From an uncultured Thermoanaerobaculia bacterium (lineage in GTDB: Bacteria > Acidobacteriota > Thermoanaerobaculia > Thermoanaerobaculales > Sulfomarinibacteraceae), in assembly GCA_964565045.1 (NCBI GenBank), contig CAZMED010000001.1, positions 169 to 64,168 on the forward strand: a DNA stretch of 64,000 bases. Direction: 5' to 3'. Numbering within the stretch: the first letter of the stretch is position 1; every line of letters starts with the position of its first letter. Of this stretch, positions 4,260 to 52,355 are shown piece by piece. A model generated the notes under the pieces. That model was given only the letters and a program-made list of their open reading frames with translations, ran no database searches and was not told the origin of the DNA. A program made the translations under genes and the position numbers.

Positions 4260-4263
4260 GGCC

Positions 4264-5651: not shown

Positions 5652-5680
5652 ACCCCGTCATCATAACGTGCGGACGCGGC

Positions 5681-6706
5681 TCAGGCGATGGCGATCTTGC
5701 GCAGAAGATCGATGTTGGTGAGCATCATGCCGGTCCCCCGCACCACCGCCGAACCCGGTTCCTCGCAGTGGGCGACCGGCAGGCCGGTCTCCTCGCGTAA
5801 ACGTTTGTCCAGGTTCTTCAGCAGCGAGCCGCCGCCGGCGAGGATGATTCCCTTGTCGATGATGTCGGCGGAGAGCTCGGGAGGCGTCTGCTCGAGAGCG
5901 TTGCGAACCGCGTCCACGATGGTCGACACGATCTCGGTCAATGCTTCGCGGATCTCCTCGTCGGTGATGGTGAGGTTCTTCGGCACGCCTTCCACGAGAT
6001 CGCGGCCCTTGACCTCCATCGACAGCGGCTCGTCGAGCGGATAGGCGGAGCCGATCTGGATCTTGATCTGCTCCGCGGTCCTCTCGCCGAGCAGCAGGTT
6101 GTACTTCTTCTTCAGGTAGTGGATGATCGCCTCGTCCATCTCGTTGCCCGCGATCCGCACCGAGCGTGAGTACACGACACCGGCGAGCGAGATCACCGCC
6201 ACGTCCGAGGTTCCGCCGCCGATATCGACGATCATGTTGCCGGACGGCTCGGTGATCGGCAGGCCGGCGCCGATGGCCGCGGCGGTCGCCTGCTCGATGA
6301 GGTAGACCTCGCTCGCGCCCGCCTTCAGGGCGGTGTCGCGGACGGCCCGCTTCTCGACCTGGGTGATCTCGGACGGCACCGAGATGATGATCCGCGGCCG
6401 CACGAGGAAGGACCGCCCGTGGGCCTTCCGGATGAAGTGCTCGAGCATCTTCTCGGTCACCTCGAAATCGGCGATCACGCCGTCCTTCATGGGCCGGATC
6501 GCCTGGATATTCGACGGCGTCTTGCCGAGCATCTCCTTGGCCTTGGCGCCGACCGCCTCGACCCGGTTGGTGACGCGGTTGACGGCCACGATCGACGGCT
6601 CGACGACGGCGATGCCGCGGCCGCGGACGTAGACCAGGGTGTTGGCGGTCCCCAGGTCGATGGCGAGATCGGACGAGAACAGCCCGAGCAGGCTGGAAAG
6701 GCTCAT
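5681..6706 (-). CDS. mreB: Actin-like rod-shape protein MreB
   Basis: MSLSSLLGLFSSDLAIDLGTANTLVYV... with IVDIGGGTSDVAVISL actin-fold motifs; 341 aa. A GGAGG lies upstream. The longer 506-aa track ORF is an Arg-rich upstream extension and was rejected. Confidence 0.95.
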   Translation of the reverse strand: MSLSSLLGLFSSDLAIDLGTANTLVYVRGRGIAVVEPSIVAVNRVTNRVEAVGAKAKEMLGKTPSNIQAIRPMKDGVIADFEVTEKMLEHFIRKAHGRSFLVRPRIIISVPSEITQVEKRAVRDTALKAGASEVYLIEQATAAAIGAGLPITEPSGNMIVDIGGGTSDVAVISLAGVVYSRSVRIAGNEMDEAIIHYLKKKYNLLLGERTAEQIKIQIGSAYPLDEPLSMEVKGRDLVEGVPKNLTITDEEIREALTEIVSTIVDAVRNALEQTPPELSADIIDKGIILAGGGSLLKNLDKRLREETGLPVAHCEEPGSAVVRGTGMMLTNIDLLRKIAIA

Positions 6707-8070: not shown

Positions 8071-8315
8071 GGTGCGCAGCGGCTGCACACGGATCACTAC
8101 CCAGTCGAGCTCCAAACCACGTGCCACCGCCGCTCGTCCTCCAAAAAACACCGTAACACGGGCCTTTTCAAGCGGCAAGCAGCCTCGTCCGGGGGGCCTC
8201 GGGCGGCGCGTCCCGCCACTCGAGAAGGGCGGCGCCGGACTCCCACGTCGCTTGCGCCACCAACCGCGCTTCGGTACACTTCGCTGTCCCGACATCGGGG
8301 CGGGTGGAGGACCGG

Positions 8316-22889: not shown

Positions 22890-22919
22890 GTGACACCGCG
22901 GACGGGTGGGGTTCATAAT
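22890..22919 (+). promoter_or_regulatory. Putative sigma70-type promoter for the GTPase-kinase fusion gene
   Basis: GTGACA (22890-22895), an 18-nt spacer, then CATAAT (22914-22919), about 25 nt upstream of ATG 22943. Pattern match only. Confidence 0.3.
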
Positions 22920-22942
22920 GGGTACTCCAGGTTCGGAGGCCC

Positions 22943-25127: not shown

Positions 25128-26507
25128 TCACGGCGCGGACAGGATCTCCCGGCGGCAGCCGTCGCCCGCCTCGCGGGCGGCGTCCGTGGCCGCGTCGACG
25201 GCGGCCTCGGAGGCGATCTCGAGCACGCCGCCGCCGCCGTCCGGCAGGGTTCGCGGCCAGGCGCCGATCTCGGGGATCTGGGCGCGGCCGATGTGGAGGC
25301 AGGCTCCAAGAGGCGTCGCCCGCCCGGGGCCGAAGACCTCGCGCAGGGCCGGCGGGAAGTCGGCGAGCCGCGCCAGCCGCGAGCCGACCCGGCGCGACAG
25401 GCGATCCAGCAGTGCCCGCCGGAGACGGTCGTGCGGCACCGGCAGGGTGGCCAGGACGTAGAGCACGAGGTCGGCCGGGACCGATGCGAGGTGGACCGCC
25501 AGGGTGGCGGTGCCGGGATCGACGCTGAAGTGCGGCGCGGCCGCGGCCGCGGTGCGCGACCACATCGTCACCACCCTGTGAATGAAGGAGTCGAGCTTGG
25601 CGACGTCGGGGCGGCGGAGAAACACCGCGCCGGCGAGGTCCGGCCACACCTGGTGGCGGTTCGCCGAGCGCTCGAGCTCCTCCAGGGTCAACGGCTCGGG
25701 GACGCCGCTTGCCCGCACCGAGCGCGCGAACACCATCTGGTTCCAGGCCGCGTGCGGGAGCCCGAGGAGGCCGACCGGTTCGCCGTCGGCCGCGGTGCGG
25801 CCGATCCCCGCGACCCGGAGCCTGGGCATGGGAACCAGGCCCGGGCTCGAGGCCAACCACTGGGCGATGGCGCCGACGATGTCGTGCACCTGGTCGTGGA
25901 GGTTGCTGAGCTCGTGCCCGCTCACCGATTCGTCGGTGGTGACACCGACTCGGACGAGCTCCCAGAAGAGGCTCTCGAAGGCCTCCCCGGTCAAGGGCAG
26001 CTCGTGCTCGAAGAGGTCCTGCTGCGGGACCGCATACTCGTCGGTGCGTCTCGCCGCCTCCATCAGCAGCCGGCTCGGCTGGACGTCGAGCCTGAGGCCG
26101 AGCACGTCGAGCACCGGATGGCGCGGGTCGAAGTCGAAGTGCACCTCGGGCGACACCAGGAGCCGGCTCGTGATCACCTCGGCGAGCTCGGAGAGGGCGC
26201 GGTGCAGGCTCGTCCCGTCGACGGTCCCGTGGGCGATCAGCAGGTCGGTGAACAGGGTGCGCCGGAGCATCGAAACAGCGAGCAGGCGCTGCAGCTCGGC
26301 CACGGGCGCCAGCCCGCGGGCGGCGATCCACGACGCGAGACGCTCTTCCGCGATCGTCGACGAGACGTAGCAGACCCTCCCGGAGTTGAAGTCCAAACGG
26401 CGCTCGCCGCGGCGGTCCTTGAGGGCCAGGCGGCCGCTGATGCCTCCCATCTGAAACCACTGCAGGAGGTCTCCGAAGTGCAGTCGGTCCAGGCTGCCGC
26501 TGATCAT
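25128..26507 (-). CDS. PATAN/DUF4388 domain protein
   Basis: N-terminal MISGSLDRLHFGDLLQWFQMGGISGRLAL fits the DUF4388 (PatA N-terminal-like) signature GSL..h.l.DllQ......tG.L.l. GGAGGA RBS present. The remaining ~350 aa are unassigned. Confidence 0.7.
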   Translation of the reverse strand: MISGSLDRLHFGDLLQWFQMGGISGRLALKDRRGERRLDFNSGRVCYVSSTIAEERLASWIAARGLAPVAELQRLLAVSMLRRTLFTDLLIAHGTVDGTSLHRALSELAEVITSRLLVSPEVHFDFDPRHPVLDVLGLRLDVQPSRLLMEAARRTDEYAVPQQDLFEHELPLTGEAFESLFWELVRVGVTTDESVSGHELSNLHDQVHDIVGAIAQWLASSPGLVPMPRLRVAGIGRTAADGEPVGLLGLPHAAWNQMVFARSVRASGVPEPLTLEELERSANRHQVWPDLAGAVFLRRPDVAKLDSFIHRVVTMWSRTAAAAAPHFSVDPGTATLAVHLASVPADLVLYVLATLPVPHDRLRRALLDRLSRRVGSRLARLADFPPALREVFGPGRATPLGACLHIGRAQIPEIGAWPRTLPDGGGGVLEIASEAAVDAATDAAREAGDGCRREILSAP

Positions 26508-26544
26508 CCTCCAAGTATAACCAGGCGTGCGCTACCATCTGGCG

Positions 26545-27503: not shown

Positions 27504-28019
27504 TCAGGTCCCGGCGGGGTCGATCGGCGCGGCTGCCGGGCGTCCGGCGAGCTCGCGATCGATCATCAGCAGGCCGTGCGGGTTCGACTCCACCATCTTC
27601 ACCTGGTGGTACAGCGTGTCGGCGGTCGCCTCCTCCTCCACCTGCTCGTTGACGTACCAGTGCAGCACGACCGTCGTCGCGTGGTCGTTCTCCGAGTTGG
27701 CGAGGTCGACGAGCCGGTTGATCCGCTCGCTGATGTGCTGCTCGTGCTTGAGCACCGCCTCGACCGCGGCCGCCGGCGAGGACCACTCGGACTGGGGGGC
27801 GTCGAGGGCCATCAGCTGCACGGTGCCGCCGCGCTCGTTGAGGTAGTCGAAGAGCTTCATGGCGTGCCCGAACTCCTCCTGGGCCTGGATCCGCATCCAG
27901 TGGGCGAACCCGTCGAGGTGCAGCTTGGTGAAGAATGCGGCCACCGACAGGTAGAGGTAGAAGGAGAAGAACTCGGCGTGAATCTGCTCGTTGAGACCTT
28001 GCTCGACCTTGGCTTTCAT
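27504..28019 (-). CDS. Ferritin (non-haem, Ftn-like)
   Basis: MKAKVEQGLNEQIHAEFFSFYLYLSVAAFF..., di-iron ExxH QAQEEFGHAMK, and WYVNEQVEEE. Confidence 0.88.
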   Translation of the reverse strand: MKAKVEQGLNEQIHAEFFSFYLYLSVAAFFTKLHLDGFAHWMRIQAQEEFGHAMKLFDYLNERGGTVQLMALDAPQSEWSSPAAAVEAVLKHEQHISERINRLVDLANSENDHATTVVLHWYVNEQVEEEATADTLYHQVKMVESNPHGLLMIDRELAGRPAAAPIDPAGT

Positions 28020-28133
28020 GGGTGGGTTCCTTTCGCTTGACGCGCCCGGATGTCGGGCCGCGCCGGACATCGACGTCAGTATAACGTGCCGCCGCCGCTC
28101 TGTATGCCAGCCTGTGACGGCTCGTGCCGCGCC

Positions 28134-29033
28134 TCAGTCGCGGCCGGGAAAGGAACGGGGCGCGATCCACGGGCGGATGTTGTTGAAGTCGGAAGGCTCT
28201 GCCCAGAGCAGACCGGCCGCACGGCCATCCGCGAGCGGCCGCCCGGCGCCCCACAGCACGGCGCCCGCCAGCACGATCGTGACGGCCAGAAAGGCCGCGC
28301 CGCGCGCGCTCGGCGGCTGCATCCGACACACCGACGGCGCCGGGTATCGGAACCATGCCAGGATCAGGACCGCTGCGACCGGGACCGCGAGAGCGGCCAG
28401 GCTGCGCCCTCGGGTCTCGCCGCCGAGGATCGTGGCCAGGGCCGCCCAGGTCGCCGCCGGCAGCACGAGATGGGCCGCCACCAGCGCCGCGCGGCGGACG
28501 CGGCCGAGATTCGGCGTGCGCCTGCGGGCGAGCTCGAGAAGCCGGACGGCCGGCGCCAGCGCGACGGCGGCGGCGGCGAGAGGCGCCGCCCACAAGGCGG
28601 CGGCGGGCAACCGCTGCAGGGCGAGCCAGCGCACGAGGTGCCCGTCGTCCGCGTCGAGCAGCGGCAGCCAGGCGCCTGCGACCACCGCCGCCGCCCACGC
28701 CGCCTGCAGGACCGTCAGCTCGACGGTCCAGGTTCGCGACCGCGGCCGCAGCGCCATGAGGACCACCGCCGCCACCAACGGCAGCAGCCACGAGCCCCAC
28801 CAGTATCCGAAGGCCCGGGGCAGCGACGCGAAGTTGAGGACCGGCTGGTTGACCAGGGCCCACACCTGGCGGTCGATGGGCAGGCTGAGCCCGATCCAGG
28901 CGCAGCCGCCGAGGACCGCGCCCAGCCCCTGGCCCGCGGCGGCCAGAACCAGGGTCGACGGGAAGGCTGCGGCGGCCGCCAGCCACGACACGACGATCAC
29001 CTGGGGCGCGCCCGGACCCGCTTCGGTGGACAT
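28134..29033 (-). CDS. Hypothetical polytopic membrane protein
   Basis: 299 aa with multiple hydrophobic helices rich in Ala/Leu/Trp. Start guessed at MSTEAG (complement 29031-29033). No family recognised. Confidence 0.5.
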   Translation of the reverse strand: MSTEAGPGAPQVIVVSWLAAAAAFPSTLVLAAAGQGLGAVLGGCAWIGLSLPIDRQVWALVNQPVLNFASLPRAFGYWWGSWLLPLVAAVVLMALRPRSRTWTVELTVLQAAWAAAVVAGAWLPLLDADDGHLVRWLALQRLPAAALWAAPLAAAAVALAPAVRLLELARRRTPNLGRVRRAALVAAHLVLPAATWAALATILGGETRGRSLAALAVPVAAVLILAWFRYPAPSVCRMQPPSARGAAFLAVTIVLAGAVLWGAGRPLADGRAAGLLWAEPSDFNNIRPWIAPRSFPGRD

Positions 29034-29061
29034 CGGCCGGCATGCTACCATGCCCCCCGCT

Positions 29062-31050
29062 ATGAAGGTGCAAGGCACGTGGCTGCAGTGTTTTCTTTGC
29101 CTCCTGGCGGTCGGAGGCTGGCTCGCGCCGCCGCTCCAGGCGCAGACCCTGCACCTCGAACGCCTGGGCAACGGCACCGAGCTCGTGCTGATCGGGCAAC
29201 CGCTCGCCGATGCCACCACCGTGGTCTGGCCGGGCCTCGCGGCGGACGGCGGACGGCCGCGGGTGGTGGTCGGAGGCGCCTTGACCCTGGTTGCGGACCT
29301 CGAGGCCGCGATGGGCGGCCTGGCTGCGGCGCCTCCGGTGGTGGTCGCCGTCGGCGCGTCCCCGACGCTCGACCTCCGCGGGGCCCTCGAACGCCTGGCG
29401 CCCGAAGGTCCGCCGTCGGCGCCATCGCGGCCATCCCGGCGGCTCGTCGACGAAGGCCGCATCGAACGCCGCCTGGGACCGCCCGGGTCGGATGTCGAGA
29501 TCCGCCTCGAGGTCAACCTGCCGCCGTCGGAAGATCCGCTTCGGACCCCGGTCGAAGTGCTGTGGGACATTCTGCCGGAAGCCCTGTCGACCGAGCTCGC
29601 CGGCCTGCGGACCCGGGTCGACGGGGGTCTCGGGGTGCTCGAGGCGCGAGCCCGGGCGGCCGACGTGGACATGACCCTGCGCCGCCTGCGGTTCGGCCTC
29701 GCGGCGATCGCCGGCAACCCGAGCCTTCAGCCCGACATGATCGAGGCCGCCGCCGAGCGCCTCGTGGTTCGGCGGCGGGCGGCGCTCGAGCGTCACCCCG
29801 AGGCCGCGCTCGGAGTCCTCGATCTGTGGCTCGAGGGTGGGGCGGCCGCGGTGCGCGAGTTTCTGTTCGGCGGCGACGGGGTGACGGTCGCCAGCGTTCA
29901 GGAGGCGGCCCGGGCGTGGCTGCCGCAGCACCCGGGTGCCGCGGTCGTGGTCCTGCCTCCGCAGGCCTTCAACCCCCGCTTCGCGTCGCCGCCGGTGGTG
30001 GTGCAGCTCGAAAGCGGGCTCACGGCCGCGGTGCTGGAGCGGCCGGGCTCGCAGCTCGCCACCGCCTGCCTGCGGCCCGTGGTGGTGCCCGACCTCGACG
30101 ACGATGCCGCGGCGGCCATCCTCACCAGGGTCGCCGCCGAGCTCCGCGGCCTCGCCGAGCGGCCGGGCTCGGTGGAGGTGCGGACGGCGCCGTCGCGTCT
30201 CGAGCTGGCGGCCTCTCCGCAGGCCTTCGCCGAGATGTTGGAGTCGCTCCGAAGGGCCCTGGCTGCCGTCGCTGCCGACGAGCAGCCCGTGGCGCTGGGA
30301 CCGGGGGACGCCCGACGGCGGGCGCTGCACCTGGCGGCCGGTCTGCTCGGCGTGGCCGACGGCGCGGTCCTGTCACCCTCCGCCCTTCTGCGGTGGGACA
30401 ACCTCGCCCTCGGCGTGGTGGTCGAGGATGAGGAGACCGCGATCGAGGCGGTGCGGAAGTTCTGGGCCTTCGACAGCGCGCACGCCGGCGCCTCCGTTCG
30501 GATGCTGGCGCCGGTCCCACCCACCCGGGAGGCGGTCGCCGGCTCGTCCTCGACCGTGGTGGTGGCGCTCGACCTCGATGGGGTGGCGGGCGAGGCCGAC
30601 CGCCGGGTGGTGGCGGAAATCCTCGCGCGCCGCGGTGCGGCCCTGTTTTCCGAGCACTCGTTCGAGGTGCTGCGACCCTTCGTGCCGGGACGGAGGGGGC
30701 TGCTCGTCGTGGTTTCGGCCGCGGCTCCGGTCGAGGCGATCGAGCGGATGCTGCGCAAGGCCTGGTCCGAGCTGACCCGTGCCCCCGGTGCGCAGGAGAT
30801 CGAGGGGCTGCGTCGCGAGGTGGCGGCGGCGGACTCCGCGTTCTGGAGCGGCGCCTCGGGCCGCGCCCGCCGGTGCGCCGCGGTGGCCGTCGGCGAGGCG
30901 GGCTGGCGGCCGGCTGCCGATATGGAGCTGGCGGTTCTCTCGCTGCCCTTGGAGCAGCTCGAGGCCGTCTTCGAAAGCCTCCGCGAGCTGGAGGCGATGC
31001 CGCTGACCGCGGCCGGTCTGCTGCCGATCGTCGAATCCGACGCGCGCTAG
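29062..31050 (+). CDS. Secreted protein with weak M16 (pitrilysin)-like pattern and no HxxEH zinc motif
   Basis: Signal peptide MKVQGTWLQCFLCLLAVGGWLAPPLQA, then LERLGNGTELVLI (an M16-type opening strand). No HxxEH anywhere in the first 150 aa. The 662-aa frame has consistent GC3. Confidence 0.45.
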   Translation: MKVQGTWLQCFLCLLAVGGWLAPPLQAQTLHLERLGNGTELVLIGQPLADATTVVWPGLAADGGRPRVVVGGALTLVADLEAAMGGLAAAPPVVVAVGASPTLDLRGALERLAPEGPPSAPSRPSRRLVDEGRIERRLGPPGSDVEIRLEVNLPPSEDPLRTPVEVLWDILPEALSTELAGLRTRVDGGLGVLEARARAADVDMTLRRLRFGLAAIAGNPSLQPDMIEAAAERLVVRRRAALERHPEAALGVLDLWLEGGAAAVREFLFGGDGVTVASVQEAARAWLPQHPGAAVVVLPPQAFNPRFASPPVVVQLESGLTAAVLERPGSQLATACLRPVVVPDLDDDAAAAILTRVAAELRGLAERPGSVEVRTAPSRLELAASPQAFAEMLESLRRALAAVAADEQPVALGPGDARRRALHLAAGLLGVADGAVLSPSALLRWDNLALGVVVEDEETAIEAVRKFWAFDSAHAGASVRMLAPVPPTREAVAGSSSTVVVALDLDGVAGEADRRVVAEILARRGAALFSEHSFEVLRPFVPGRRGLLVVVSAAAPVEAIERMLRKAWSELTRAPGAQEIEGLRREVAAADSAFWSGASGRARRCAAVAVGEAGWRPAADMELAVLSLPLEQLEAVFESLRELEAMPLTAAGLLPIVESDAR

Positions 31051-32374: not shown

Positions 32375-32842
32375 TCAGAAGAACGAGGTGTTCTGCTCGA
32401 CCTTCTGGCCCTCCTCGCTCAGGCCCTGGATCTGGATCGAGATGAAGGTCGGCCGGAACTTGTGGTCCTGGCACAGCCGCCGCAGCCGCTCATCGAGCTC
32501 GGCGTCCCAGAACTCGATGATCTTGCCGGTGGCTGTGCACACCATGTGGTGGTGGCCGCCGCCCGGCTCCATCTTCTCGTAGTAGTAGTGCTCGCGCCCG
32601 AGGCGGCTCTTGCGCACCAGCCCGCACTGCACCAGCAGGTCGAGGGTGCGGTAGACCGTGGCCCGCGACACCTTGCGCTGCTTGGACTTCATGCGCGCCA
32701 GCAGATCGTCGGCGTCGAGATGCTCGTCGGTGGCGAAGATCTCGTCCAGCAGCGCGAGGCGCTCCTGCGTCACCTTGAGGTTGTTCTCGCGCAGATATTG
32801 GATGAAAAGCTTCTGTGCCCGCTGTGCCAGTTTACTGCTCAT
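32375..32842 (-). CDS. fur: Fur-family transcriptional regulator
   Basis: RATVYRTLDLLVQCGLV (wHTH) and a HHHMVC metal-site region; 155 aa. Confidence 0.88.
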   Translation of the reverse strand: MSSKLAQRAQKLFIQYLRENNLKVTQERLALLDEIFATDEHLDADDLLARMKSKQRKVSRATVYRTLDLLVQCGLVRKSRLGREHYYYEKMEPGGGHHHMVCTATGKIIEFWDAELDERLRRLCQDHKFRPTFISIQIQGLSEEGQKVEQNTSFF

Positions 32843-33180
32843 AGCATTAATCCAGTCTCATTATCACCGTCTCAACCTAAGGTACTGTCGATGCGACGTT
32901 GTGTCAAGAGGAAGCGGAGCGGATTTTTCCGCCGGCGCGAAAAACACGCTGTTTGGGGCGACGGTCGCGCGCAAGCGGTGCGAACGCCCGACGCCAACAT
33001 GTGCGCGTTTGCTCACACTTAAGTATTTGCTTCGAGCACTTTACCGGGTGATGATGGGGATGATACCTTGTCGCGCACCCCTTCCTCCGTGCGGCCGGCC
33101 TTCGCCGGCGCCGACGAGAAGGGCGGGGTCGCCCGCAGGGGCACGACGGCGCCGGCTCAGAGCCGGCCGGGAGGCGAGGC

Positions 33181-42449: not shown

Positions 42450-43300
42450 TCCGGCACGCCCTCGCAGAAGGGTGGCTTCTGCTGCGGCAACGCGCCGCCA
42501 CGAGCCTCGTGCTCGCGCTCGCCCTGGCGGTGCCGATCGCCCTTGCCGGGGTCGGCCTCACGGTCAACCTCTGGTTGGGTCCGGTGGCCGCACTCTCGCC
42601 CGAGATCTCGAGGGTTGCGGTGCTCCTGCATCCGAGCCTCGACGACGAGCAGCGCCGGCAGTGGATCGCCACCGAGGCCTCAGCGCACCCCGATTGGGTG
42701 CTGCTCGAGGTGTCGGCGGGCGAGCTCGCGGATCGCCTCGGCCGCTGGTTCCCCTATCTCGGCGAGCTGCTGGCGTCGGGCGACGCATCGATGCCGCCCT
42801 TAATCGAGATCGAGACCGCCGAACCCGAGACGGTCGGAGTGCTGGAGGGTCGCCCGGAGGTGCTGGCCGTCGGGCCCCGCTCCTCCCTTCCGGTGCTGTT
42901 CGGCCGCGTCGCCCGCGGCCTCGCATGGGGCGTCGGCGCCGTGAGCGCCGTCCTGCTCGCATCGGCGCTGCTGCTGGCGGCGGTGTGGGTTCACCTCGAG
43001 CTCTTCCGTCATGCCGACGAGCTCACGATCATGCGCCTGGTGGGCGCCACCGAGGGCACGGTGCGTGGGCCCTTTCTGGTCGCGGTGGCGGTCCCGGCAG
43101 CGGTCGCCGGCGGACTCTCGGTGGCGGTCTCGTCGGCGATCGTGGCAGGTCTCGGGGGCCTGGTCGCGACCCTCGGTCTGCCGCCCCTCACGATGCCGCC
43201 GGCGGTGCTGCTGCTGCAGGCCACCGCCGCAGTCATTCTCCCGGTCGCCGCGGCGCTCGTCACCCTCGCGCGCCACACCGCCGATCAGATCGACGGCTGA
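42437..43300 (+). CDS. ftsX: Cell-division permease-like protein FtsX
   Basis: Overlaps the ftsE stop. Four TM segments with a periplasmic loop; typical FtsX length and position. Confidence 0.8.
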   Translation: MAAVIRHALAEGWLLLRQRAATSLVLALALAVPIALAGVGLTVNLWLGPVAALSPEISRVAVLLHPSLDDEQRRQWIATEASAHPDWVLLEVSAGELADRLGRWFPYLGELLASGDASMPPLIEIETAEPETVGVLEGRPEVLAVGPRSSLPVLFGRVARGLAWGVGAVSAVLLASALLLAAVWVHLELFRHADELTIMRLVGATEGTVRGPFLVAVAVPAAVAGGLSVAVSSAIVAGLGGLVATLGLPPLTMPPAVLLLQATAAVILPVAAALVTLARHTADQIDG

Positions 43301-43317
43301 CCCTCGAACTCCGGGAT

Positions 43318-43343
43318 GAAAAAACGCGGCCCGGAGGCCGCGT
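43318..43343 (-). terminator. Rho-independent terminator downstream of the TPR gene (minus strand)
   Basis: An 8-bp stem ACGCGGCC (43324-43331) / GGCCGCGT (43336-43343) with loop CGGA. The A-run 43318-43324 becomes the T-tract on the minus strand. Confidence 0.65.
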
Positions 43344-43365
43344 CGTCGTCGGCTCCCGGCCGGGC

Positions 43366-44598
43366 TCAACGGCAACGGTCGGCGTAGTCCTTCTCGAGGG
43401 TCGGCAGCTGCTCCTGGAGGAGCTTCGCGTTCTCCATGTCGCCGAGCTTCTGGAGCTCCGCAACCTGCATTTTCAGAGCGTCGATCTTGCGCTTGAACTC
43501 GGCGCACTCCTGTTCGGCGGCTCGGTTCTGCGCCGCCGCGCCCTGCTTCTCCCGCATCTCGGCCACCTTGCGATCGTTGCCGGCGTTCTGGTACCACTGG
43601 ATGGCCTGATCGTAGTTCTTCATCTTGTCGTAGACATAGCCGCCCTGGTTGTAGATCTGGGTGCGGACCTTGCCCGTCGGGCCGACCTTGAGTGCCTGCT
43701 GGAGGTCCGTCACGGCGGCGCTGAGCTGGTCGGTCGACGTCTTGCACTGCGCCAGGTAGAGGTAGACCAGGGCGTTGTTCGGCTGCTGCGCCTTGGCCTT
43801 CTCGAACCAGCTCTGCGCCTTGCGATAGTCCCCGGCGCCGAGCCAGGCCTCGCCGGCGAGCAGGTTGTGGTCGAAGGAGGGGTGGCTGGCAGCCAGACGC
43901 TCGGCCACCTGCGCGGCGCCGCTGTAGTACCGCGCCTTCTCGGCGTCCGTGGTGGCGCGGCGGGCGGCGAGAATGCCGGCGCGGACGGCGTTGCTGCCGC
44001 TCGACGAGTCCTTCGGATCGATCTCGAACGCGGCCTTGAACGCGTTGAACGCCCGACCGTCATCACCCTTGGCGTTGTAGGCCGCACCGAGTGCCTGCTG
44101 CAGCCGCGCGTTCTTGGCGTCGGCCTTGACCTGGGTCGAGACGACGCTGATGGCCTCGTCCTCCCGGTTGGTCCTGGTCGCGGCCTGCGCGAAGAGGAGG
44201 GCGTAGCTCGAACGCAGCGAAGCTTCCATGGCGCTCATGTTGAGCGGCTTGAGGAGCTCGTAGGCATTCTGGTACTGATCGGCCTGGAGCAGCGCCTGGG
44301 CGAGCGCGATCTTGTACGACGGCTGGCTTCCGTCGAGCTCGACCGCCTTGCGCAGGCTGGCGATGGCCGGGCTCACCTGGCCGAGAGCCCGCTGGGAGAC
44401 CCCGAGCATGTAGAACCCGCCCGCGTAATCCGGGTTGGTCTTGGTGACCTCCTCGAACTCCTTGACCGCGGTGCTCCAGTCCCTCGCTTTGTAGGCCTCG
44501 AGGCCCTTGTTCCACTCAGCGTCGGCAGGCGCGGCCGCGGCCAGCAGCAACGCGATCGCCGCCGCTGCGACCCTCGCACGGGCGGTTTTCGATGTCAT
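43366..44598 (-). CDS. Periplasmic TPR-repeat protein (last gene of the ExbBD-TonB operon)
   Basis: Signal peptide MTSKTARARVAAAAIALLLAAAAPADA and many TPR units (W..G..Y...DY..A...F..A). C-terminal coiled-coil flanked by two Cys. GGAGG RBS present. Confidence 0.8.
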   Translation of the reverse strand: MTSKTARARVAAAAIALLLAAAAPADAEWNKGLEAYKARDWSTAVKEFEEVTKTNPDYAGGFYMLGVSQRALGQVSPAIASLRKAVELDGSQPSYKIALAQALLQADQYQNAYELLKPLNMSAMEASLRSSYALLFAQAATRTNREDEAISVVSTQVKADAKNARLQQALGAAYNAKGDDGRAFNAFKAAFEIDPKDSSSGSNAVRAGILAARRATTDAEKARYYSGAAQVAERLAASHPSFDHNLLAGEAWLGAGDYRKAQSWFEKAKAQQPNNALVYLYLAQCKTSTDQLSAAVTDLQQALKVGPTGKVRTQIYNQGGYVYDKMKNYDQAIQWYQNAGNDRKVAEMREKQGAAAQNRAAEQECAEFKRKIDALKMQVAELQKLGDMENAKLLQEQLPTLEKDYADRCR

Positions 44599-44618
44599 GA
44601 TCCGGTGCCTCCAAGTTT

Positions 44619-45470
44619 TCAACGGGATTCTCCCAGATTTTGTTGCAGCTCGCCCAGCAAGGGCCGCACCTGCTCGTCGAACATCGCGGCCGTGTCGGCG
44701 CCCTTGAGCAGCGAGATGGCCTTGGTGTTCTGTTCGACCATCTCCCGCAGCGCGTGAAAACCCTCGCCGCGTTCGATCAGGGTGCGCGCTGCACCGTACT
44801 GTTTGTCGATCGTCCGCTGGCCCCCGGTACCGACGACGTCGAGCGCCACCGCGCGGATCTTCTCGGCCAGCCCGAGCAGGGTAACAGGGCTCGCCCCCGC
44901 CTGCCAGCGCTGGCCCCGTTCTCCGGCCTCGCTCGCGCTGCCGAGCGCCACCAGGCCGGTGGTGATCAGCCCGAACAGGAGCTTCGAAACGTCGAACGGC
45001 GCCCACTTCAGCGCCCCCGCGATCTCCTCGATGGAGTGCTGGCCGTCGATCCGGGTGACCAGGATCCACTCCTGGGGGCTGAGGGTGACCTGGTCGGCGC
45101 CGCGGTCCCGTGGCGTGAAGTACGGCACGAGGTCGAGCGACGGGATCTTGCGCCGCAGCACCCGCCACTCGTCCAACCGGCGCGCCGCCTCCATCATCAG
45201 CGAGGCGTTCGACACGTGGATGGTGACCTGCTCGCACTCTTCGCCGGGCAGGAACTCGAAGGTTCCGTCCGCCCACATCGCCATCTCGAACACCGCGTTG
45301 TCGCCGCGGAGATTGCCGACGGCGGCGTCCACGATCTGTCCGTCGCGCAGGACGATGCGCCCGGCCTGCTCGTCGCGCTGGATGTTGAACGCGCCCGTCT
45401 TGCCGGAAACGCTCACCAGTTGGATGACGTCCGACAGCGGCAGCTCGCTCAACGACCCTTGCAGCGACAT
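44619..45470 (-). CDS. PATAN/DUF4388 domain protein (second copy in the window)
   Basis: MSLQGSLSELPLSDVIQLVSVSGKTGAFNIQ... (DUF4388 signature), followed by a SPQEWILVTRIDGQHSIEEIA wHTH-like segment. It lies 10 nt downstream of the tonB stop and 20 nt upstream of the TPR gene. Confidence 0.7.
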   Translation of the reverse strand: MSLQGSLSELPLSDVIQLVSVSGKTGAFNIQRDEQAGRIVLRDGQIVDAAVGNLRGDNAVFEMAMWADGTFEFLPGEECEQVTIHVSNASLMMEAARRLDEWRVLRRKIPSLDLVPYFTPRDRGADQVTLSPQEWILVTRIDGQHSIEEIAGALKWAPFDVSKLLFGLITTGLVALGSASEAGERGQRWQAGASPVTLLGLAEKIRAVALDVVGTGGQRTIDKQYGAARTLIERGEGFHALREMVEQNTKAISLLKGADTAAMFDEQVRPLLGELQQNLGESR

Positions 45471-45480
45471 TGTGGAGAGT

Positions 45481-46215
45481 CTACTGCAGATTGAATCGCA
45501 CCGTGAGGATGTAAAGGACCTCCACCGGCTTGCCGTTGAGCGTGGACGGCTCGAAGCGCCACTTCTGGACGGCGTCGACCGCGGTCTCGGTGAGCCCGAG
45601 CGGCAGGCCGCGCAGGACCTTGACGTTCTGCACCCGCCCGTCCTTGCCGATCGTGCATTCGAGCACGACAACGCCCTGGATCCGCGCCCGACGGGCCGCT
45701 TCCGGGTACACCGGCGAGGGGCCGCTGATCTTGACCGGCTCGGTGATGTTGCCGCCGACCACGAAGCGGACGGGGCCCTCCGGCTCGGGCGGGGGGGGCG
45801 CGTCGGGGACGCCGAGCACCAGGTTGTCGTCGGGCACGAAGTCGATGTTCTCGTCCGGCTGCTCGTCGCGGATCGGCTCGGGCTCGTCCGGCGTCGGATC
45901 GGGGATCGGGACCTTCTGGGTCTTCGGCTTGGGGATCTGCTGCATCTCGCGCCGTGGCGGCTGCTTGAACTTGACCTGCTTGACGACGTAGATCTTGCTC
46001 TTCTTCTCTTTGGCATCCGACAAGCCGCCGGCGAAGGAGGGCCACTGGACGGCGAAGACAATGACGTGGAACACGATCGCAATGCCGAAAGCCCAGCGCG
46101 CGAACTTCCGATCCTGGGTTTCCTCCGCGGCCAGCATTTCGGCCGTGGTCATCGGCATGTCGGAGTCGTCGACCGCGTCCGGCTTGGTCTTCTTGGGCTT
46201 CCCGGCGTCGCTCAT
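45481..46215 (-). CDS. tonB: TonB-family energy transducer
   Basis: TM anchor FARWAFGIAIVFHVIVFAV, a Pro-rich spacer (PPPPEPEGP), and the TonB_C motif YPEAARRARIQGVVVLECTIGKDGRVQNVKVL. GGGAG precedes ATG 46215. Confidence 0.88.
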   Translation of the reverse strand: MSDAGKPKKTKPDAVDDSDMPMTTAEMLAAEETQDRKFARWAFGIAIVFHVIVFAVQWPSFAGGLSDAKEKKSKIYVVKQVKFKQPPRREMQQIPKPKTQKVPIPDPTPDEPEPIRDEQPDENIDFVPDDNLVLGVPDAPPPPEPEGPVRFVVGGNITEPVKISGPSPVYPEAARRARIQGVVVLECTIGKDGRVQNVKVLRGLPLGLTETAVDAVQKWRFEPSTLNGKPVEVLYILTVRFNLQ

Positions 46216-46226
46216 GGCATTCTCCC

Positions 46227-46676
46227 TCACTGGATCCCGAGCATGGACCAGAGGTTCTCGATCTCGCGTCGGGTTGGAATCGAAATCGTCTTGATCTCCA
46301 TGTCGATCTTGTCGGGCGCTTGTCGCAGCTCGTCGAAGACCGTGATCATGTCGCCGTAGGTCGCGTCGGGGTCGGTGCGCAGGATCACCGGCTTGTCCGG
46401 GTTCTGCTTCAGCTTGTCCCCGATGTACGGCAGCATCGCCTCGAAGGACATACCCTGACCGTCGACCTCGATCGCGCCGCCCCGCATGACGTGGACGTCG
46501 ATCGAGTCTTCCTGCTTGATCTCGGGCGTCTGGGTGTCCTCGGGCAGGGCGAAGTCGAGCCCGCGGGTCGCCGAGAACGCCGAGGTGATCATGAAGTAGA
46601 TGATCAGCAGGAACGAGATGTCGGCCATCGATCCGGTGAAGATCTCGGACGGGACTTCCTTCTTCTTTATCTTCAT
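46227..46676 (-). CDS. exbD: Biopolymer transport protein ExbD/TolR (copy 2)
   Basis: Membrane anchor region (ADISFLLIIYFMIT) followed by an ExbD periplasmic domain; 149 aa. Confidence 0.88.
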   Translation of the reverse strand: MKIKKKEVPSEIFTGSMADISFLLIIYFMITSAFSATRGLDFALPEDTQTPEIKQEDSIDVHVMRGGAIEVDGQGMSFEAMLPYIGDKLKQNPDKPVILRTDPDATYGDMITVFDELRQAPDKIDMEIKTISIPTRREIENLWSMLGIQ

Positions 46677-46692
46677 CGTCGTCCCTCCGCCG

Positions 46693-47136
46693 TCAATTGA
46701 CGGTCTTCTGTTCGGACAGGAGGTAGATGAACTTCACCTTCGACTGTTTGAGCGCATCGAGCACCGCGTCGACCCTCTCGTAGGGCACGGCGTCGTCGGC
46801 CTTGATGATGAACTCCTTGTCCGGGTTCTGGGCGACCTCGGTCGAGGCGAAGGTGACGACCTCCTCGTCGGTGCTGACCGGCAGCGACATCTCCTCGCCG
46901 GTCGAGACGCGAACTGTCAACGGCGGGTTGGCATCGGGCGGCGAAATCGAAATCACGGCCGCCTTCTCCGGAACCTTCATCCGCACCCAGGTGTCGGGCA
47001 GGTCCATCTTCGTGCGGTCGACCTCGACCTTGTAAGTGAGGACGAAGAACACGATCAGCAGGAAGACGATGTCCGCCATCGATGCCGTGAAGATCTGCGC
47101 TCCGGTTTTGCGGTCCCTTCCGCGGATGAGTGCCAT
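46693..47136 (-). CDS. exbD: Biopolymer transport protein ExbD/TolR (copy 1)
   Basis: Membrane anchor region (ADIVFLLIVFFVLT) followed by an ExbD periplasmic domain; 147 aa. Confidence 0.88.
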   Translation of the reverse strand: MALIRGRDRKTGAQIFTASMADIVFLLIVFFVLTYKVEVDRTKMDLPDTWVRMKVPEKAAVISISPPDANPPLTVRVSTGEEMSLPVSTDEEVVTFASTEVAQNPDKEFIIKADDAVPYERVDAVLDALKQSKVKFIYLLSEQKTVN

Positions 47137-47150
47137 CGGCGGACTCCCTT

Positions 47151-47807
47151 CTAGGCCTGGCCCTCGCCCCCCTGGGCGTAACGCTGGCTGTCCATCTCGA
47201 CGAAGGTCTCGACGAGCATGTTGGAAGCGGTCTCGATGTCACGCACGAAGCGGGTGATCTTGGTGGTGTACCAGTTGAAGACCAGCTGCGCCGGGATGGC
47301 GATGATGAGACCGGTGGCGGTCGTGATCAGCGCCTCGGAGATGCCGACAGCCACCGCGGCGGGGTTCGTCAGACCCTGCTCGGCGAGGGTGGCGAAGGAC
47401 TTGATCATGCCGGCGACGGTGCCGAGGAAGCCCAGCATGGGGGCCACGTTGGCGGTTGTGGCGAGCACGCCGAGGCGCTTTTCGAGCCGATCGAGCTCGT
47501 ACAGAGCGGCGTTCTCGATGGTCTTCTCGATGTCTTCCCGGGAGTGGCCGTAGCGCAGCAGACCGGCCTTCATGACCGAGGCCACCGGGCTCTTGTTCTG
47601 CTCGCAGACCTTGATCGCCTCTTTGACGTTGCGGTTGACCAGCAGCGCCTTGCGGATCTTGGTCAGAAACTCGTTGACATTGATCTTGGCCTTGGAAAAG
47701 ACAATGAAACGCTCGATTGCTACGGTGGCGGCCAACACCGAGAAAAAGAGCAGCGGGTACATGAAGATCCCACCCTGGCGGAAATACTCTGCAACCTGTC
47801 CAGTCAC
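47151..47807 (-). CDS. exbB: MotA/TolQ/ExbB proton-channel protein
   Basis: GGIFMYPLLFFSVLAATVAIERF and the C-terminal channel helices GLTNPAAVAVGISEALITTATGLIIAIP. GTG start with a GAGGAGG RBS. Confidence 0.9.
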   Translation of the reverse strand: MTGQVAEYFRQGGIFMYPLLFFSVLAATVAIERFIVFSKAKINVNEFLTKIRKALLVNRNVKEAIKVCEQNKSPVASVMKAGLLRYGHSREDIEKTIENAALYELDRLEKRLGVLATTANVAPMLGFLGTVAGMIKSFATLAEQGLTNPAAVAVGISEALITTATGLIIAIPAQLVFNWYTTKITRFVRDIETASNMLVETFVEMDSQRYAQGGEGQA

Positions 47808-47997
47808 GGCTCTGCCTCCTCTTGGTTCGAGTTCTCAGGCGGGGATGAGTTCCAGCCTCATCCGGAAATCCTTCGTGTATCGTCCGGTGGGCCCGAGGAT
47901 CCGACCCGAAAACACCGTCGCGATACCCTGTCGTTGCGTCGCGCGTGCTTCATCCGAGAATGAAGGCAGGGCATCGTAGCACGGGCCCCCGGGGGCG

Positions 47998-48489
47998 TCA
48001 ACGAGTTGCCCTGCAGGCTCCGGAGTGAATGTGCGTGAGGGCCACGGCCATCGCGTCGGCGGCATCCACCGGTGGTGTTTCCCGGAGGCTGAGCAGGCGA
48101 ATCACCATGAAGACGACCTGCGGTTTCTCGGCCCGCCCGGTGCCGACGATGGCGGATTTGACCTCGGCAGGGCTGTACGAACGCACGGCGAGCCCGGCGG
48201 CGCCCAGGGCCGCGAGAATCACGCCCCGGCTCTCGGCGAGCGCCAGTCCGGACCGCGGGTTGAGGCCGGAAAACGAGGACTCGACAGCTGCTGTGTCCGG
48301 CGCGAGCTCGGCCAGCAGCGCGCGAAGACGCGCCAAGAGGTCGGCCAGCCGACCGGGCCGGTCCTCGCCGCGCGGCCGGATCACGCCGCTCGCCTCCAGG
48401 CGGTAGCGGTTGCCGACCGCGACCACCAGCGCCCACCCGGTCGCCCGCGAGCCGGGATCGACGCCGAGGACGCGAACGCCGCTGACCAT
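47998..48489 (-). CDS. ruvC: Crossover junction endodeoxyribonuclease RuvC
   Basis: VLGVDPGSRATGWALV..., and the acidic catalytic residues DAADAMAVAL near the C-terminus. Confidence 0.9.
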   Translation of the reverse strand: MVSGVRVLGVDPGSRATGWALVVAVGNRYRLEASGVIRPRGEDRPGRLADLLARLRALLAELAPDTAAVESSFSGLNPRSGLALAESRGVILAALGAAGLAVRSYSPAEVKSAIVGTGRAEKPQVVFMVIRLLSLRETPPVDAADAMAVALTHIHSGACRATR

Positions 48490-49248: not shown

Positions 49249-49350
49249 GGACCCTCCTCGTGTCCCGCCCCGCGCGGCTGCTGCGGATGCGGAGGTTGGG
49301 CATTATACCTCGGGGCCGGCGCCGGCCGCCGGGGATGCGGCGGCCTTCGG

Positions 49351-49378
49351 TTGACTTTGCAAACCCGTCACACATAAT
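49351..49378 (+). promoter_or_regulatory. Putative sigma70-type promoter for the Ser/Thr kinase gene
   Basis: TTGACT (49351-49356), a 16-nt spacer, then CATAAT (49373-49378), about 47 nt upstream of ATG 49425. Pattern match only. Confidence 0.4.
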
Positions 49379-49424
49379 GAGGTTTGGACACTTCGACCAC
49401 GGCAGGGGCTGCGAGGGCGGTTTG

Positions 49425-52355
49425 ATGCGTGCGAACATCCTTGTCATCGAGTACGAACCGCGGTCCGTGGAGCACGTGCAGGCCGCGCTGGCGGATGCCG
49501 GCTACCGACTCGAGATCGCCTCCACGGTCAACGACGCGGTCAATCGCTGCGCCCACTTCGAGCCCACCGTGGTGATCATCACCTCGCTGCTGCCCAACCT
49601 CAAGATCGAGGACGCGATCACCCAGTTGCGGGCGCGCGCCGGACTGCGCGCCACCCCCTTCCTGATCCTGATGTCGGGCTATCGCGGCGACACGCCGCGC
49701 CAGGACGCGGTTCGCTTCGGGGCCCAGGACATTCTGCCCCGGCCGTTCGGCCGCGATGATCTGCGGGCCCGCGTCGAGGAGCTGGTGAGCGCCGCGCCCA
49801 ACCCCGCGGCCACCCAGGCGATTCCGCAGGAGATGTTGGAGACCCTGCGCCGCAGTGCGGGCCTCGACGGCGGGGGGGGTGCAGTGACCTCGGACGATCT
49901 CTTCGGCGACATCGTCTTCGACGTCGAAGGAGGCGAGCCCCCCCCGACGGCCGCGACCGACGACGTGCTGTCATCGGCCGCCGGCGGCAAGAGCTCCGAG
50001 CCCGCGCCGGGGGCGAAGCCGTCCGCGGTCGACGAGGCGCTCGCCGACCTTCTCGCGAGCACCAGGAGCGCCCCGACCTCGAAGCAGGACCGGGACGTCG
50101 CGGCGGACGTCGACAAGATGCTCTCGGAAACCCTGTCGGGCCTCGAGGTCCGCCACCGTAAGGCGCCGGCTTCGCAGCCGTCCGCGCCGCGTGCCGAGCC
50201 GCCGGCCGCGCCGCGCCCGAAACCTTCGCCCTCGGGGCCGCCGGCCGCCGGCCGGCAGCCCGCCGCTCCCGGGTCGCCGCCCGCGGCCAGGGTCGCGTCG
50301 CCCGCGCCGCCACCCGCGGCGGGTTCGACGCCACCCCGGGTGCGGCCGCCGGAGCAGGCGCCGAAGGCGCCCCCTTCCGCGCCCGCAGCCGGGACCCCGG
50401 CCGCGAGCGTCCCGCCGCCATCGAAGCCTTCACCCGCCGCACCGTCCGCCCGGGCGGCGTCCATACGCGGCAGCCGCTTCGGTCAGTACGTTCTCGAGGA
50501 GCACATCGCCACCGGCGGCATGGCCGAGGTGTACAAAGCGCGGATGATGGGCATGGAGGGCTTTCAGAAGACCGTCGCCATCAAGAGGATCCTGTCCAAC
50601 CTGACGGACAGCGACGAGTTCGTGCGCATGTTCATCGACGAGGCCAAGCTCGCGGCACAGCTCAACCACAACAACATCATCCACATCTACGATCTCGGCA
50701 AGGTCGACCGTTCGCACTACATCGCCATGGAGTTCATCGACGGCCGCGACCTGCGCTCGATCCTGGCGGAGTGCCAGGAGCGCGGCCTCCGCATGCCGAT
50801 CCCGCTCGCCCTCCACATCACCGTCCTGCTCGCCTCGGCGCTCGACTACGCGCACAAGAAGCGGGACTTCGAAAACCGCGATCTCGGCCTGGTGCATCGC
50901 GACGTGTCCCCTCAGAACGTCCTCATCTCGTACCAGGGCGACGTGAAGCTGTGCGACTTCGGCATCGCGAAGGCGGCGTCGAAGGCATCCCAGACCCGCG
51001 CCGGGGCGCTCAAGGGCAAGCTGCAGTACATGTCCCCCGAGCAGGCATGGGGCAAGAGCATCGACCACCGGTCCGACATCTTCTCGCTCGGTCTGGTGCT
51101 GTACGAGATGCTGACCTCGAAGAAGGCGTTCGCGGGCGACTCCGAGCTGTCGGTTCTCGAGCAGGTCCGCGACCCCATCATCGCTGCTCCGTCCTCACAC
51201 AATCCGGAGGTCGGTCCGGAGATCGACCGCATCGTCTTCCAGGCGCTGCAGGCGGACCGCGATGACCGCTACCAGTCCGCGTTCGAGCTCCAGCGGGACA
51301 TCGAGCAGGTCATGCGGAGCCGGGAGTGGAGCGCTGACCAGACGGCCATCGCCGATTTCCTGGCCGCACTTCAGCGCAAGGACCCGCCCCGCACCGGTCC
51401 GCCGGGCGAAGCTGTCGGGCAGAGCGCCGCCAGCCCGCCGCGCGAACCGCCGCCGCCGCGCCGACCCGCCCCACCGACGGGACCGGGTCCGCGCGGCCCC
51501 GCCATCGCGCCTTCCAAGCCGCTCGACGTGCCGGCGCCGGATGCCGAGCTCGAACGGGCGCTCGGCCCCCGCCGCGATCCGGTACCGCCGCCGCTGGCGG
51601 CCGAGCTCGACGACACCGGCAGTGCCGCCGCTGCGGGCGGCTCCCGTCAACTGTGGGTGCTGCTGGCGATCCTGATCGTGGTGGTGGCCGCGGCGGGCTG
51701 GTACTTCCTGCGCGGCGGATCGGGGCCCGGTTCGGTATCGGGCGAACCCATGGCGGTGCCGGTGGCGACCGAGACCCCGAGCCCGGAGCCGGCTCCGGGC
51801 CTGCTCACCGAGCAGGAGCTGATCGAGCAGGCCCGGGCGGTTGCGGCGGCGGAGATCGAGAAGCAGGAGGAGGCCCTGCGGCTGCGACTGGAGGACGAGT
51901 TCCCGACGCCGACGCCGTACCCTCCGACTCCGACCCCGACCGCGACCGCCACGCCGACCGTGACCTCGACCCCGACCAGGGTGCCGCCGACCCCGACCCG
52001 TCTCGCGCCGACCGCGACGCCGGTGCCCCCGACGCCGACGCCGGCGGTCCGTGAGGGTGATATCGTGGCGCTCGGCCCCGGGGTCGTCCCGCCGGTCGCG
52101 ATCCAGCAGTCCAGTCCCGAGTACCCGCGGCTGGCGCATCGCCTGCGCAAGTCGGGGGTGGTTGAAGCGGAGGCGCTGGTGGGAATCGACGGCTCGGTCG
52201 AGGAGTTTCGTCTGATTGCCGTCGACTTCCCCGGGGTGGGCTTCGAGAAGGCGACCGAGGACGCCGTCAGGAGCTGGCGCTACAAGCCGGCGACCAAGCT
52301 CGGGGTGAGGGTGCGGATGTGGGTCGCGGTCCGGGTTCCGTTCGTGCTGGAATAG
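49425..52355 (+). CDS. Multidomain Ser/Thr protein kinase: REC-like N-domain, Pro/Ala-rich linker, Hanks kinase, TM helix, Pro/Thr-rich spacer, TonB C-terminal-like domain
   Basis: The kinase spans about aa 350-625 ([39 protein letters not shown]). The TM helix [20 protein letters not shown] lies at nt 51651-51710. The PT-rich stretch is at about nt 51900-52045. The C-terminal ~100 aa align with the TonB_C of the tonB gene in this window ([34 protein letters not shown]...[10 protein letters not shown]). Confidence 0.85.

Follow-up and report, generated by a model that had tools for sequence, protein, structure and literature searches.

The window analysed here, a stretch of 64,000 nucleotides (nt) from contig CAZMED010000001.1 (GenBank assembly GCA_964565045.1) of an uncultured Thermoanaerobaculia bacterium with a G+C content of approximately 70%, contained on its minus strand (47807-43366) six co-directional open reading frames (ORFs) encoding, in order, ExbB, two ExbD paralogues (ExbD and ExbD'), TonB, a protein with a PATAN domain (DUF4388) and a tetratricopeptide repeat (TPR) protein with a signal peptide. 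The gene order and close spacing given in the initial annotation were borne out by reading of the ORFs and by Pfam matches, the gaps (10-20 nt) being 14, 16, 11, 10 and 20 nt from exbB to the TPR gene; the third of these (exbD2/tonB) becomes a 4-nt overlap if tonB begins at the alternative GTG at 46230. The features of the cluster and its borders were as follows:

47973-48001, minus strand: sigma70-type promoter (TTGACG, 17 nt, TG-n-TACGAT), directly 3' of the ruvC stop codon; the sole promoter-like site found on the strand.
47808-47972, minus strand: 5' leader of exbB, with an inverted repeat, a hairpin and a ribosome-binding site (RBS; AGGAGG at 47815-47820).
47948-47965, minus strand: operator-like inverted repeat CTTCAT-N6-ATGAAG, overlapping the predicted transcription start and kept in the closest loci.
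47843-47863, minus strand: leader hairpin GGATGAG-N7-CTCATCC, approximately 40 nt 5' of the exbB start codon, kept in the closest loci.
47151-47807, minus strand: exbB/tolQ-family proton-channel subunit, 218 aa, GTG start (PF01618, MotA_ExbB, 2.6e-34).
46693-47136, minus strand: exbD/tolR paralogue 1 (exbD1), 147 aa (PF02472, ExbD, 1.3e-14), with SMADIVFLLIV.
46227-46676, minus strand: exbD/tolR paralogue 2 (exbD2), 149 aa (PF02472, 1.1e-20), with SMADISFLLII.
45481-46215, minus strand: tonB of a distinct subfamily, 244 aa, ATG at 46215 with RBS GGGAGA (PF03544, TonB_C, 1.4e-23).
44619-45470, minus strand: cytoplasmic PATAN (DUF4388/PatA_N) protein, 283 aa (PF14332, 1.3e-23, 83.8 bits).
43366-44598, minus strand: periplasmic TPR protein, 410 aa, matched by many TPR Pfam families.
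43314-43344, minus strand: intrinsic terminator, a 9-bp G+C-rich stem followed by a T-run; the sole terminator-like site found on the strand.

Promoter and terminator sites were sought with a consensus scan of the minus strand from 43200 to 48100, and neither a promoter-like nor a terminator-like site was found inside the cluster. The terminator that the initial annotation had placed 3' of the TPR gene was the only such site in the region (located by the scan at 43344-43323 plus a T-run), and the PATAN gene, likewise described there as embedded in the operon, began 10 nt after tonB with no promoter consensus of its own. The spacer between ruvC and exbB varied from 104 to 473 nt (46 loci); a pattern search recovered the promoter motif in 45 of these 46 intergenic regions, and TTGAC and TGnTAnnAT were invariant at a spacing of 17 nt in all 14 aligned loci. 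The leader RBS was likewise conserved in the alignment of the closest loci. A single six-gene unit is in keeping with both the consensus scans and the conservation of the promoter, and we infer that all six genes are co-transcribed, from the ruvC-proximal promoter to the terminator behind the TPR gene. A scan of the window against Rfam returned zero RNA families, so the exbB leader belongs to no known class of riboswitch. Control of the operon by iron was not evident, since no AT-rich site resembling a Fur box was seen in the leader on visual check only; genes of the ferritin-like and Fur families lie elsewhere in the window (27504-28133 and 32375-32857, both on the minus strand).

Conservation of the linkage was followed in a profile scan that took a single genome for each species, in which 556 relatives were found and the best 80 were kept, as were the best 80 in the other scans. 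Neighbouring genes were mapped by tblastn and hidden Markov model (HMM) searches with the window proteins, and high-GC contigs by HMM searches and targeted Pfam scans. Near-identical contigs carried the order yebC-ruvC-exbB-exbD-exbD-tonB-PATAN-TPR, followed by convergent ftsX-ftsE. Among species loci with at least 0.9 kb of upstream sequence, TonB lay directly upstream of PATAN in 50 out of 74 (median gap 13 nt), and where at least 3 kb was available, ExbB, two ExbDs and TonB preceded PATAN in 45 out of 66. The linkage that the initial annotation required to be conserved in relatives was thus found to be kept, with all six genes in order in 42 (of 63) species-level Thermoanaerobaculia loci that also had at least 1.5 kb downstream, and with recurrences in L177, L176 and L169. 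The six genes stood in the same order in L177 (53% GC), with gaps of 12-43 nt, an RND transporter upstream and Nqr genes downstream; L176 (37.5% GC) carried the six-gene module after yebC-ruvC but without ftsEX; and L087 had the full block at approximately 45-50% PATAN identity. Related arrangements were ExbB-ExbD-ExbD-TonB followed, after a gap of approximately 710 nt, by PATAN and an SH3 protein (L169), and TonB-PATAN-TonB, in which PATAN began 13 nt after the upstream TonB (L171); in L175, the genes upstream of PATAN included those for a FecCD ABC transporter, a TonB-dependent receptor and an ECF sigma factor. Lineages with six-gene or related arrangements spanned 37-72% GC, the low-GC carriers (L168, L169, L171, L176 and L177) 37-53%. 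Since the module recurs in unrelated flanks and in divergent lineages, it is not merely frozen local synteny.

The motor subunits and the transducer carried the features expected of a Ton system. ExbB matched PF01618 with 118 bits (cut-off 22.9), and both ExbD paralogues, which were only 29% identical to each other, retained the transmembrane Asp (SMAD-I-x-FLLI) of the ExbD/TolR family. TonB combined a His-bearing transmembrane helix (IVFHVIV), a proline-rich linker and a TonB_C domain, scoring 83.5 bits against PF03544 (cut-off 24.6) and 59 bits against TIGR01352 (cut-off 27.1). Among the NCBIfam models, tolQ and exbB matched ExbB below their equivalog cut-offs, and neither the Ton nor the Tol equivalog models were reached by the motor proteins. 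In its architecture the window TonB had a cytoplasmic N-tail of approximately 40 aa with an acidic end, then the transmembrane helix, the periplasmic segment PIPDPTPDEPEPI and TonB_C. Comparison of the PATAN-linked TonBs revealed a cytoplasmic tail of 35-45 residues whose acidic, ALEYEEDR-like end abuts the transmembrane helix, and a near-invariant periplasmic segment, (K/R)VPIPDPTPDEPEPI, at 45853-45891 (minus strand) in the window. Both features were common to the window, L087, L176, L177 and the downstream TonB of L171, and ordinary acidobacterial TonBs (for example, that of the second cluster of L055, and those near PATAN in L168 and L124) had neither the motif nor the acidic tail. Judged by these features, the PATAN-linked TonBs form a distinct, recognisable subfamily. 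The linker motif was far more conserved than the remaining linker, across lineages with PATAN identity of only approximately 36-45%, which suggests a site for a peptide ligand. In the fetched loci, all of which had been gathered by anchoring on the PATAN protein so that adjacency was counted one way only, 57 of 57 TonBs with the PDEPEP motif adjoined PATAN. The TonBs near PATAN in L168 and L124 were not counted as part of the module, being separated from it by 173-190 nt and being of the ordinary type without PDEPEP.

The TPR protein had a cleavable signal peptide (MTSKTARARVAAAAIALLLAAAAPADA, cleaved before EW), no lipobox cysteine and a C-terminal tail resembling a coiled coil. Its gene and the four Ton genes occurred together in 42 loci, and in none was only one of the two present. 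Its probable binding partner is the invariant PDPTPDEPEPI peptide or some other portion of the machine in the periplasm.

The PATAN protein had neither a signal peptide nor a transmembrane segment. PF14332 was its sole Pfam match (83.8 bits against a Pfam gathering score of 25; residues 4-103), with no C-terminal CheY-like receiver domain, and the protein is therefore not a response regulator of the PatA type; since the match covers residues 4-103 and the profile has 122 positions, the helical insertion of PATAN seems to be absent. NCBIfam held no model for the protein. An AlphaFold2 model (alignment of 30 sequences; mean predicted local distance difference test score 93) placed a PATAN domain at residues 1-108, a winged-helix-like domain at 115-177 and a four-helix bundle at 195-281. 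No solved structure was related to the protein by sequence and none significantly by fold, the best fold matches, all non-significant, being to MarR/MntR winged helices and, locally, to GATOR1/SEA subunits. The most conserved stretch (LMEAARRxDEWxxLxxKIP) was basic. Homologues number in the thousands, with 2,930 at E <= 0.001 among 8,000 candidates scored; the best 120 homologue clusters (formed at 90% identity) were 78-98% identical, those with names coming from metagenome-assembled genomes (MAGs) of Thermoanaerobaculales/Acidobacteriota, and every listed homologue carried PF14332.

The modelled middle domain raises the question of a transcription factor that would bind DNA and autoregulate the operon, or regulate others, with the repeat at 47948-47965 as a possible target. 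The winged-helix-like residues 115-177 gave weak fold and sequence matches only to MarR, MntR and Lrs14 regulators, and the inverted repeat over the predicted transcription start is conserved. However, all of the regulator matches were non-significant (E values of at least 0.04 in Foldseek and at least 0.1 in HMM searches), and the would-be recognition helix, PFDVSKLLFGLITTGLV, is hydrophobic with a single conserved Lys in the alignment, which makes a DNA-binding role unlikely. Characterised PATAN proteins, moreover, work via protein-protein contacts at the membrane (bioRxiv 10.1101/2021.06.11.447907), and we consider regulation of transcription by this protein very unlikely.

We favour, with moderate confidence, a different reading, in which the six-gene unit encodes a specialised Ton-type machine and a soluble PATAN adaptor that docks on its cytoplasmic face as an accessory, not an obligate, component. 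The ExbB channel, a heteromeric ExbD/ExbD' pair, the dedicated TonB subfamily and the periplasmic TPR partner would together make up a machine driven by the proton-motive force. The PATAN protein would dock at the cytoplasmic face of ExbB/ExbD/ExbD'/TonB, either on the N-tail of TonB or on the cytoplasmic domain of ExbB, and would there serve as an adaptor through which the complex is modulated or localised. The most specific candidate for the docking site would be the conserved acidic tail of TonB, which ordinary acidobacterial TonBs lack. [quoted passage not shown] A bolder form of the adaptor reading makes the PATAN protein a dedicated cytoplasmic clutch or targeting subunit of an unrecognised Ton-type machine, binding the acidic TonB N-tail or ExbB; it is offered tentatively, as something that is possible but would not be our expectation, and it adds that the protein might pair with a membrane-spanning receiver-kinase-TonB_C protein encoded beyond ruvC (described below) as a two-way trans-envelope signalling circuit.

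Several observations weigh against a Ton-related function of the PATAN protein and are in part those expected of a hitch-hiker, that is, a protein with a Ton-independent job (for example, as a signalling or localisation adaptor) that came to share a promoter with the Ton genes through one vertically inherited ancestral arrangement. In L061-L072, L086, L155 and L172-L174 the order was yebC-ruvC-PATAN...ftsXE, the Ton and TPR genes all being absent. A neighbour-joining tree of YebC and RuvC (397 columns, 200 bootstraps; like all trees here, built on a short alignment) recovered one Ton-less clade as monophyletic (97.5%) and nested within a Ton-containing clade (100%), and grouped it with L052 (an uncultured Thermoanaerobaculum sp. 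MAG that carries the module), L077 and L053 (86.5%); Ton-less L086 paired with Ton-containing L087 (73.5%), and a single clade of all Ton-less loci received 0% support. As Ton-containing L176 is the outermost branch, the simplest history would be an ancestral six-gene operon from which the Ton and TPR genes disappeared independently at least three times, the PATAN gene being retained each time behind the ruvC-proximal promoter. Outside this group, 19 of 21 well-flanked distant metagenome loci had no Ton gene within the fetched flanks; many distant orthologues come after genes for a PDZ-GAF-PAS histidine kinase and for a sigma54 response regulator, others stand alone, and such stand-alone or two-component-linked orthologues dominate the other clades. 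The Ton and TPR genes also co-vary with each other and not with PATAN, and all named sources of relatives are Acidobacteriota, the one phylum for which the linkage can be claimed. The PATAN protein is not an obligate Ton component, since it persists where the Ton and TPR genes have been lost and is encoded behind two-component systems in sister clades.

The arrangement behind two-component systems was found in L101 (3524-8912), L136 (3566-8873) and approximately 25 other metagenome loci, in which PATAN stands third, behind the genes for a PDZ-GAF-PAS histidine kinase and for an NtrC-type sigma54 response regulator; in this large high-GC clade it is a second conserved partnership of the protein family. 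In the tree of the PATAN protein, Ton-linked forms were scattered over deep branches. L055 carried a diverged ExbB-ExbD-ExbD-PATAN set from which TonB and the TPR gene are gone, and its two Ton clusters (2787-8819) stand back to back, a canonical TPR-TonB-ExbB-ExbD-ExbD cluster lying on the strand opposite to ExbB-ExbD-ExbD-PATAN.

Against the hitch-hiker, the tight gene order recurs in the unrelated flanks of L177, and related arrangements occur in L169 and L171; given the divergence of these lineages to approximately 36-45% PATAN identity, a gene carried neutrally between tonB and the TPR gene should by now have been lost or moved. Ton-less loci had a homologous promoter, TTGACGC-N13/14-TGTGT(T/A)AGnT, between ruvC and PATAN. 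It thus appears that one promoter serves either exbB...PATAN...TPR or, in Ton-less loci, PATAN directly. The homologous promoter fits deletion of the Ton genes in situ, and its being shared argues for expression of the window PATAN gene as part of the operon, in fifth position. PATAN was nevertheless retained repeatedly in Ton-less loci and is wired to two-component systems elsewhere, which shows it to be an adaptor open to reuse rather than an indispensable subunit of the motor and leaves the hitch-hiker a substantial rival, albeit one that we judge to be rather improbable.

A wider phylum breadth, as MAG labels would have it, was considered and rejected, since the labels conflict with an identity of 65-97% to Thermoanaerobaculia loci. 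The records concerned (L006, L012, L022, L036, L037, L057 and L066) were labelled as Chondromyces, Deltaproteobacteria, Methylomirabilota, Gammaproteobacteria, Planctomycetia or Alphaproteobacteria, and all seven carried a Thermoanaerobaculia-type block at 52-97% PATAN identity. These deviantly labelled MAG records are probably mislabelled or contaminated bins.

The neighbourhood of the operon also bears on what the machine is for. An envelope or division machine of the Tol type, concerned with upkeep of the outer membrane or cell wall, with a TPR protein resembling CpoB and a PATAN protein linking the motor to the divisome, would be in line with the ExbB and ExbD proteins of the window scoring slightly higher on the tolQ/tolR than on the exbB/exbD models, with the operon adjoining ftsEX in most loci and with there being no Plug/TonB_dep_Rec gene adjoining the operon in the window. 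In Ton-less loci, OmpA-family proteins with a peptidoglycan-binding domain are encoded 3' of PATAN (L086, 9240-11849; L172, 9062-10453), and Anabaena PatA is reported to interact with the divisome (PMC7380572); the tol-pal operon of E. coli, too, has a cytoplasmic gene of unknown role, ybgC (PMC12204202). On the other hand, neither tolB nor pal was found in or beside the cluster, and the transducer exceeds the cut-off for TonB_C while falling far below that of the tolA_full model (21.6 against 59.45 bits). The adjacency to ftsEX is convergent and is missing in L176 and L177, and the L175 relative lies next to an iron-uptake cluster that includes a TonB-dependent receptor. Given the ftsEX and OmpA-type neighbours, a role in maintaining the envelope is conceivable, but we regard a Tol-type machine of this kind as unlikely.

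The initial annotation had pointed instead to polarity or motility, noting in the same window an MglA-like GTPase and a kinase bearing a TonB_C domain, and had suggested that the motor may provide input to, or be controlled by, polarity- or motility-type signalling; this was taken here as polarity signalling of the MglA type or gliding, on the model of AglRQS with Glt. One TolQ-like and two TolR-like genes do match the stoichiometry of AglR/Q/S as generally known, PATAN proteins were among the candidates in a Myxococcus type IV pilus study, and a histidine kinase of the window with a small-GTPase-like domain adjoins another PATAN protein. Cyanobacterial PATAN domains, furthermore, have been tied to the regulation of motility (bioRxiv 10.1101/2021.06.11.447907). 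The link to motility was not upheld, however: in none of the loci surveyed with Pfam-annotated gene lists did a glt, agl or mglA/mglB gene flank the module, and TonB scored below the cut-off of the AgmX/PglI C-terminal model (25.9 against 40 bits). Of the two window proteins invoked, the kinase with a TonB_C domain does exist, and the GTPase proved to be a weak Arf/small-GTPase match on a histidine kinase, 20 kb away and beside a different PATAN paralogue, with a borderline Arf score (22.4 against 22.3 bits); that paralogue is only approximately 34% identical to the operon protein, over 53 residues. A gliding or polarity role has, in our estimation, the slightest probability of the alternatives considered.

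The two genes at that distant site are convergent. The histidine kinase (22919-25114, plus strand) has an N-terminal small-GTPase-like domain (the Arf match, at the cut-off) followed by GAF, HisKA and HATPase domains, and the second DUF4388 protein (25128-26531, minus strand; 467 aa) shares with the operon PATAN protein a short similarity in the PATAN domain. The TonB_C kinase, of approximately 1,030 aa (49260-52355, plus strand), comprises a receiver, a Ser/Thr kinase, a membrane segment, a Pro/Thr-rich linker and a C-terminal TonB_C domain, and its gene is divergent from yebC-ruvC-exbB. A kinase at the same position recurs with the block across Thermoanaerobaculia, including L176 (37.5% GC), Ton-less L172 (with a weak TonB_C match) and L086. 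The protein may serve as a sensor across the envelope, reading TonB-box partners.

Ton, Tol, Mot and Agl motors have a common proton-driven design with 5:2 stoichiometry and, to our knowledge, cytoplasmic control among them is established only for the flagellar and gliding versions; we know of no cytoplasmic partner of canonical Ton systems. The window cluster resembles canonical Ton systems in its MotA/ExbB channel, in ExbDs with a transmembrane Asp and in a TonB with a His-bearing helix, a Pro-rich linker and TonB_C, and differs from them in having two divergent ExbDs (29% identity), a PIPDPTPDEPEPI TonB with a long acidic tail, a co-inherited TPR gene and a cytoplasmic PATAN gene inside the operon, with no TonB-dependent receptor adjacent. 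In the Agl-Glt system of Myxococcus xanthus, MglA acts on the cytoplasmic domain of the TonB-like GltJ. The likeness to Agl-Glt is one of concept only (a TolQ/TolR motor, two TolR-like subunits, TonB-like proteins and soluble control from the cytoplasm), as the module is without Glt, MglA and MglB and its cytoplasmic element is a PATAN protein, not a GTPase.

With the tol-pal operon (ybgC-tolQRA-tolB-pal-cpoB) the cluster has in common a motor operon of the 5:2 type, a cytoplasmic gene and a periplasmic TPR protein, CpoB in that case (PMC12204202), whereas TolB and Pal are missing here, TonB_C takes the place of the TolA C-domain and the cytoplasmic gene encodes a PATAN protein and not a thioesterase. 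Clusters of one TolQ-like and two heterologous TolR/ExbD proteins, a tethered transducer and an uncharacterised TPR gene have been reported from the Planctomycetes-Verrucomicrobia-Chlamydiae (PVC) group and Bacteroidota (PMC12204202). The assertion of the initial annotation that sets of exbB, two exbD genes, a transducer and a TPR gene occur in several phyla accordingly held in so far as such sets are described for the PVC group. Those clusters, however, have a vWA protein as transducer and the TPR gene on the upstream side, and PATAN/DUF4388 goes unmentioned (PMC12204202), whereas in the window the transducer is a TonB_C protein and PATAN stands between the transducer and the TPR gene. The PatA-type PATAN-REC regulators of Synechocystis (PixE, PixG and others) share the PATAN domain PF14332 with the window protein, which differs in lacking a receiver, in having a winged-helix-like domain and a four-helix bundle after PATAN, and in that its neighbouring machine is a Ton-type proton motor and theirs a type IV pilus ATPase.

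In the searchable literature, no report of a PATAN/DUF4388 gene in a Ton-type cluster was found, nor any joining DUF4388 with TonB or the PATAN domain with ExbB, DUF4388 itself being mentioned in only five papers, so that the initial annotation was right to call a cytoplasmic signalling-type protein in a Ton operon unexpected. What appears to be new is the combination, in one Ton-type module, of a TonB subfamily of its own, a TPR partner and a PATAN gene lying inside the operon, the motor and transducer themselves having known Ton features. If the adaptor reading is true, energy transduction to the outer membrane might likewise be open to gating or positioning from within the cell, and PATAN, a widespread domain with no solved structure, would gain a second class of motor partner beside the type IV pilus; if the PATAN protein is a dedicated clutch, this would be the first Ton-family motor with its activity or placement set from the cytoplasm. 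The TonB subfamily and its TPR partner occur in Thermoanaerobaculia and related lineages, which are widely recovered in public metagenomes. Elsewhere in the window, an ORF of approximately 1,020 aa (27982-31050, plus strand) with coding-like GC3 and no Pfam match overlaps an extended upstream frame of tyrS; it either encodes an uncharacterised protein or is a spurious frame of the kind seen in high-GC DNA.

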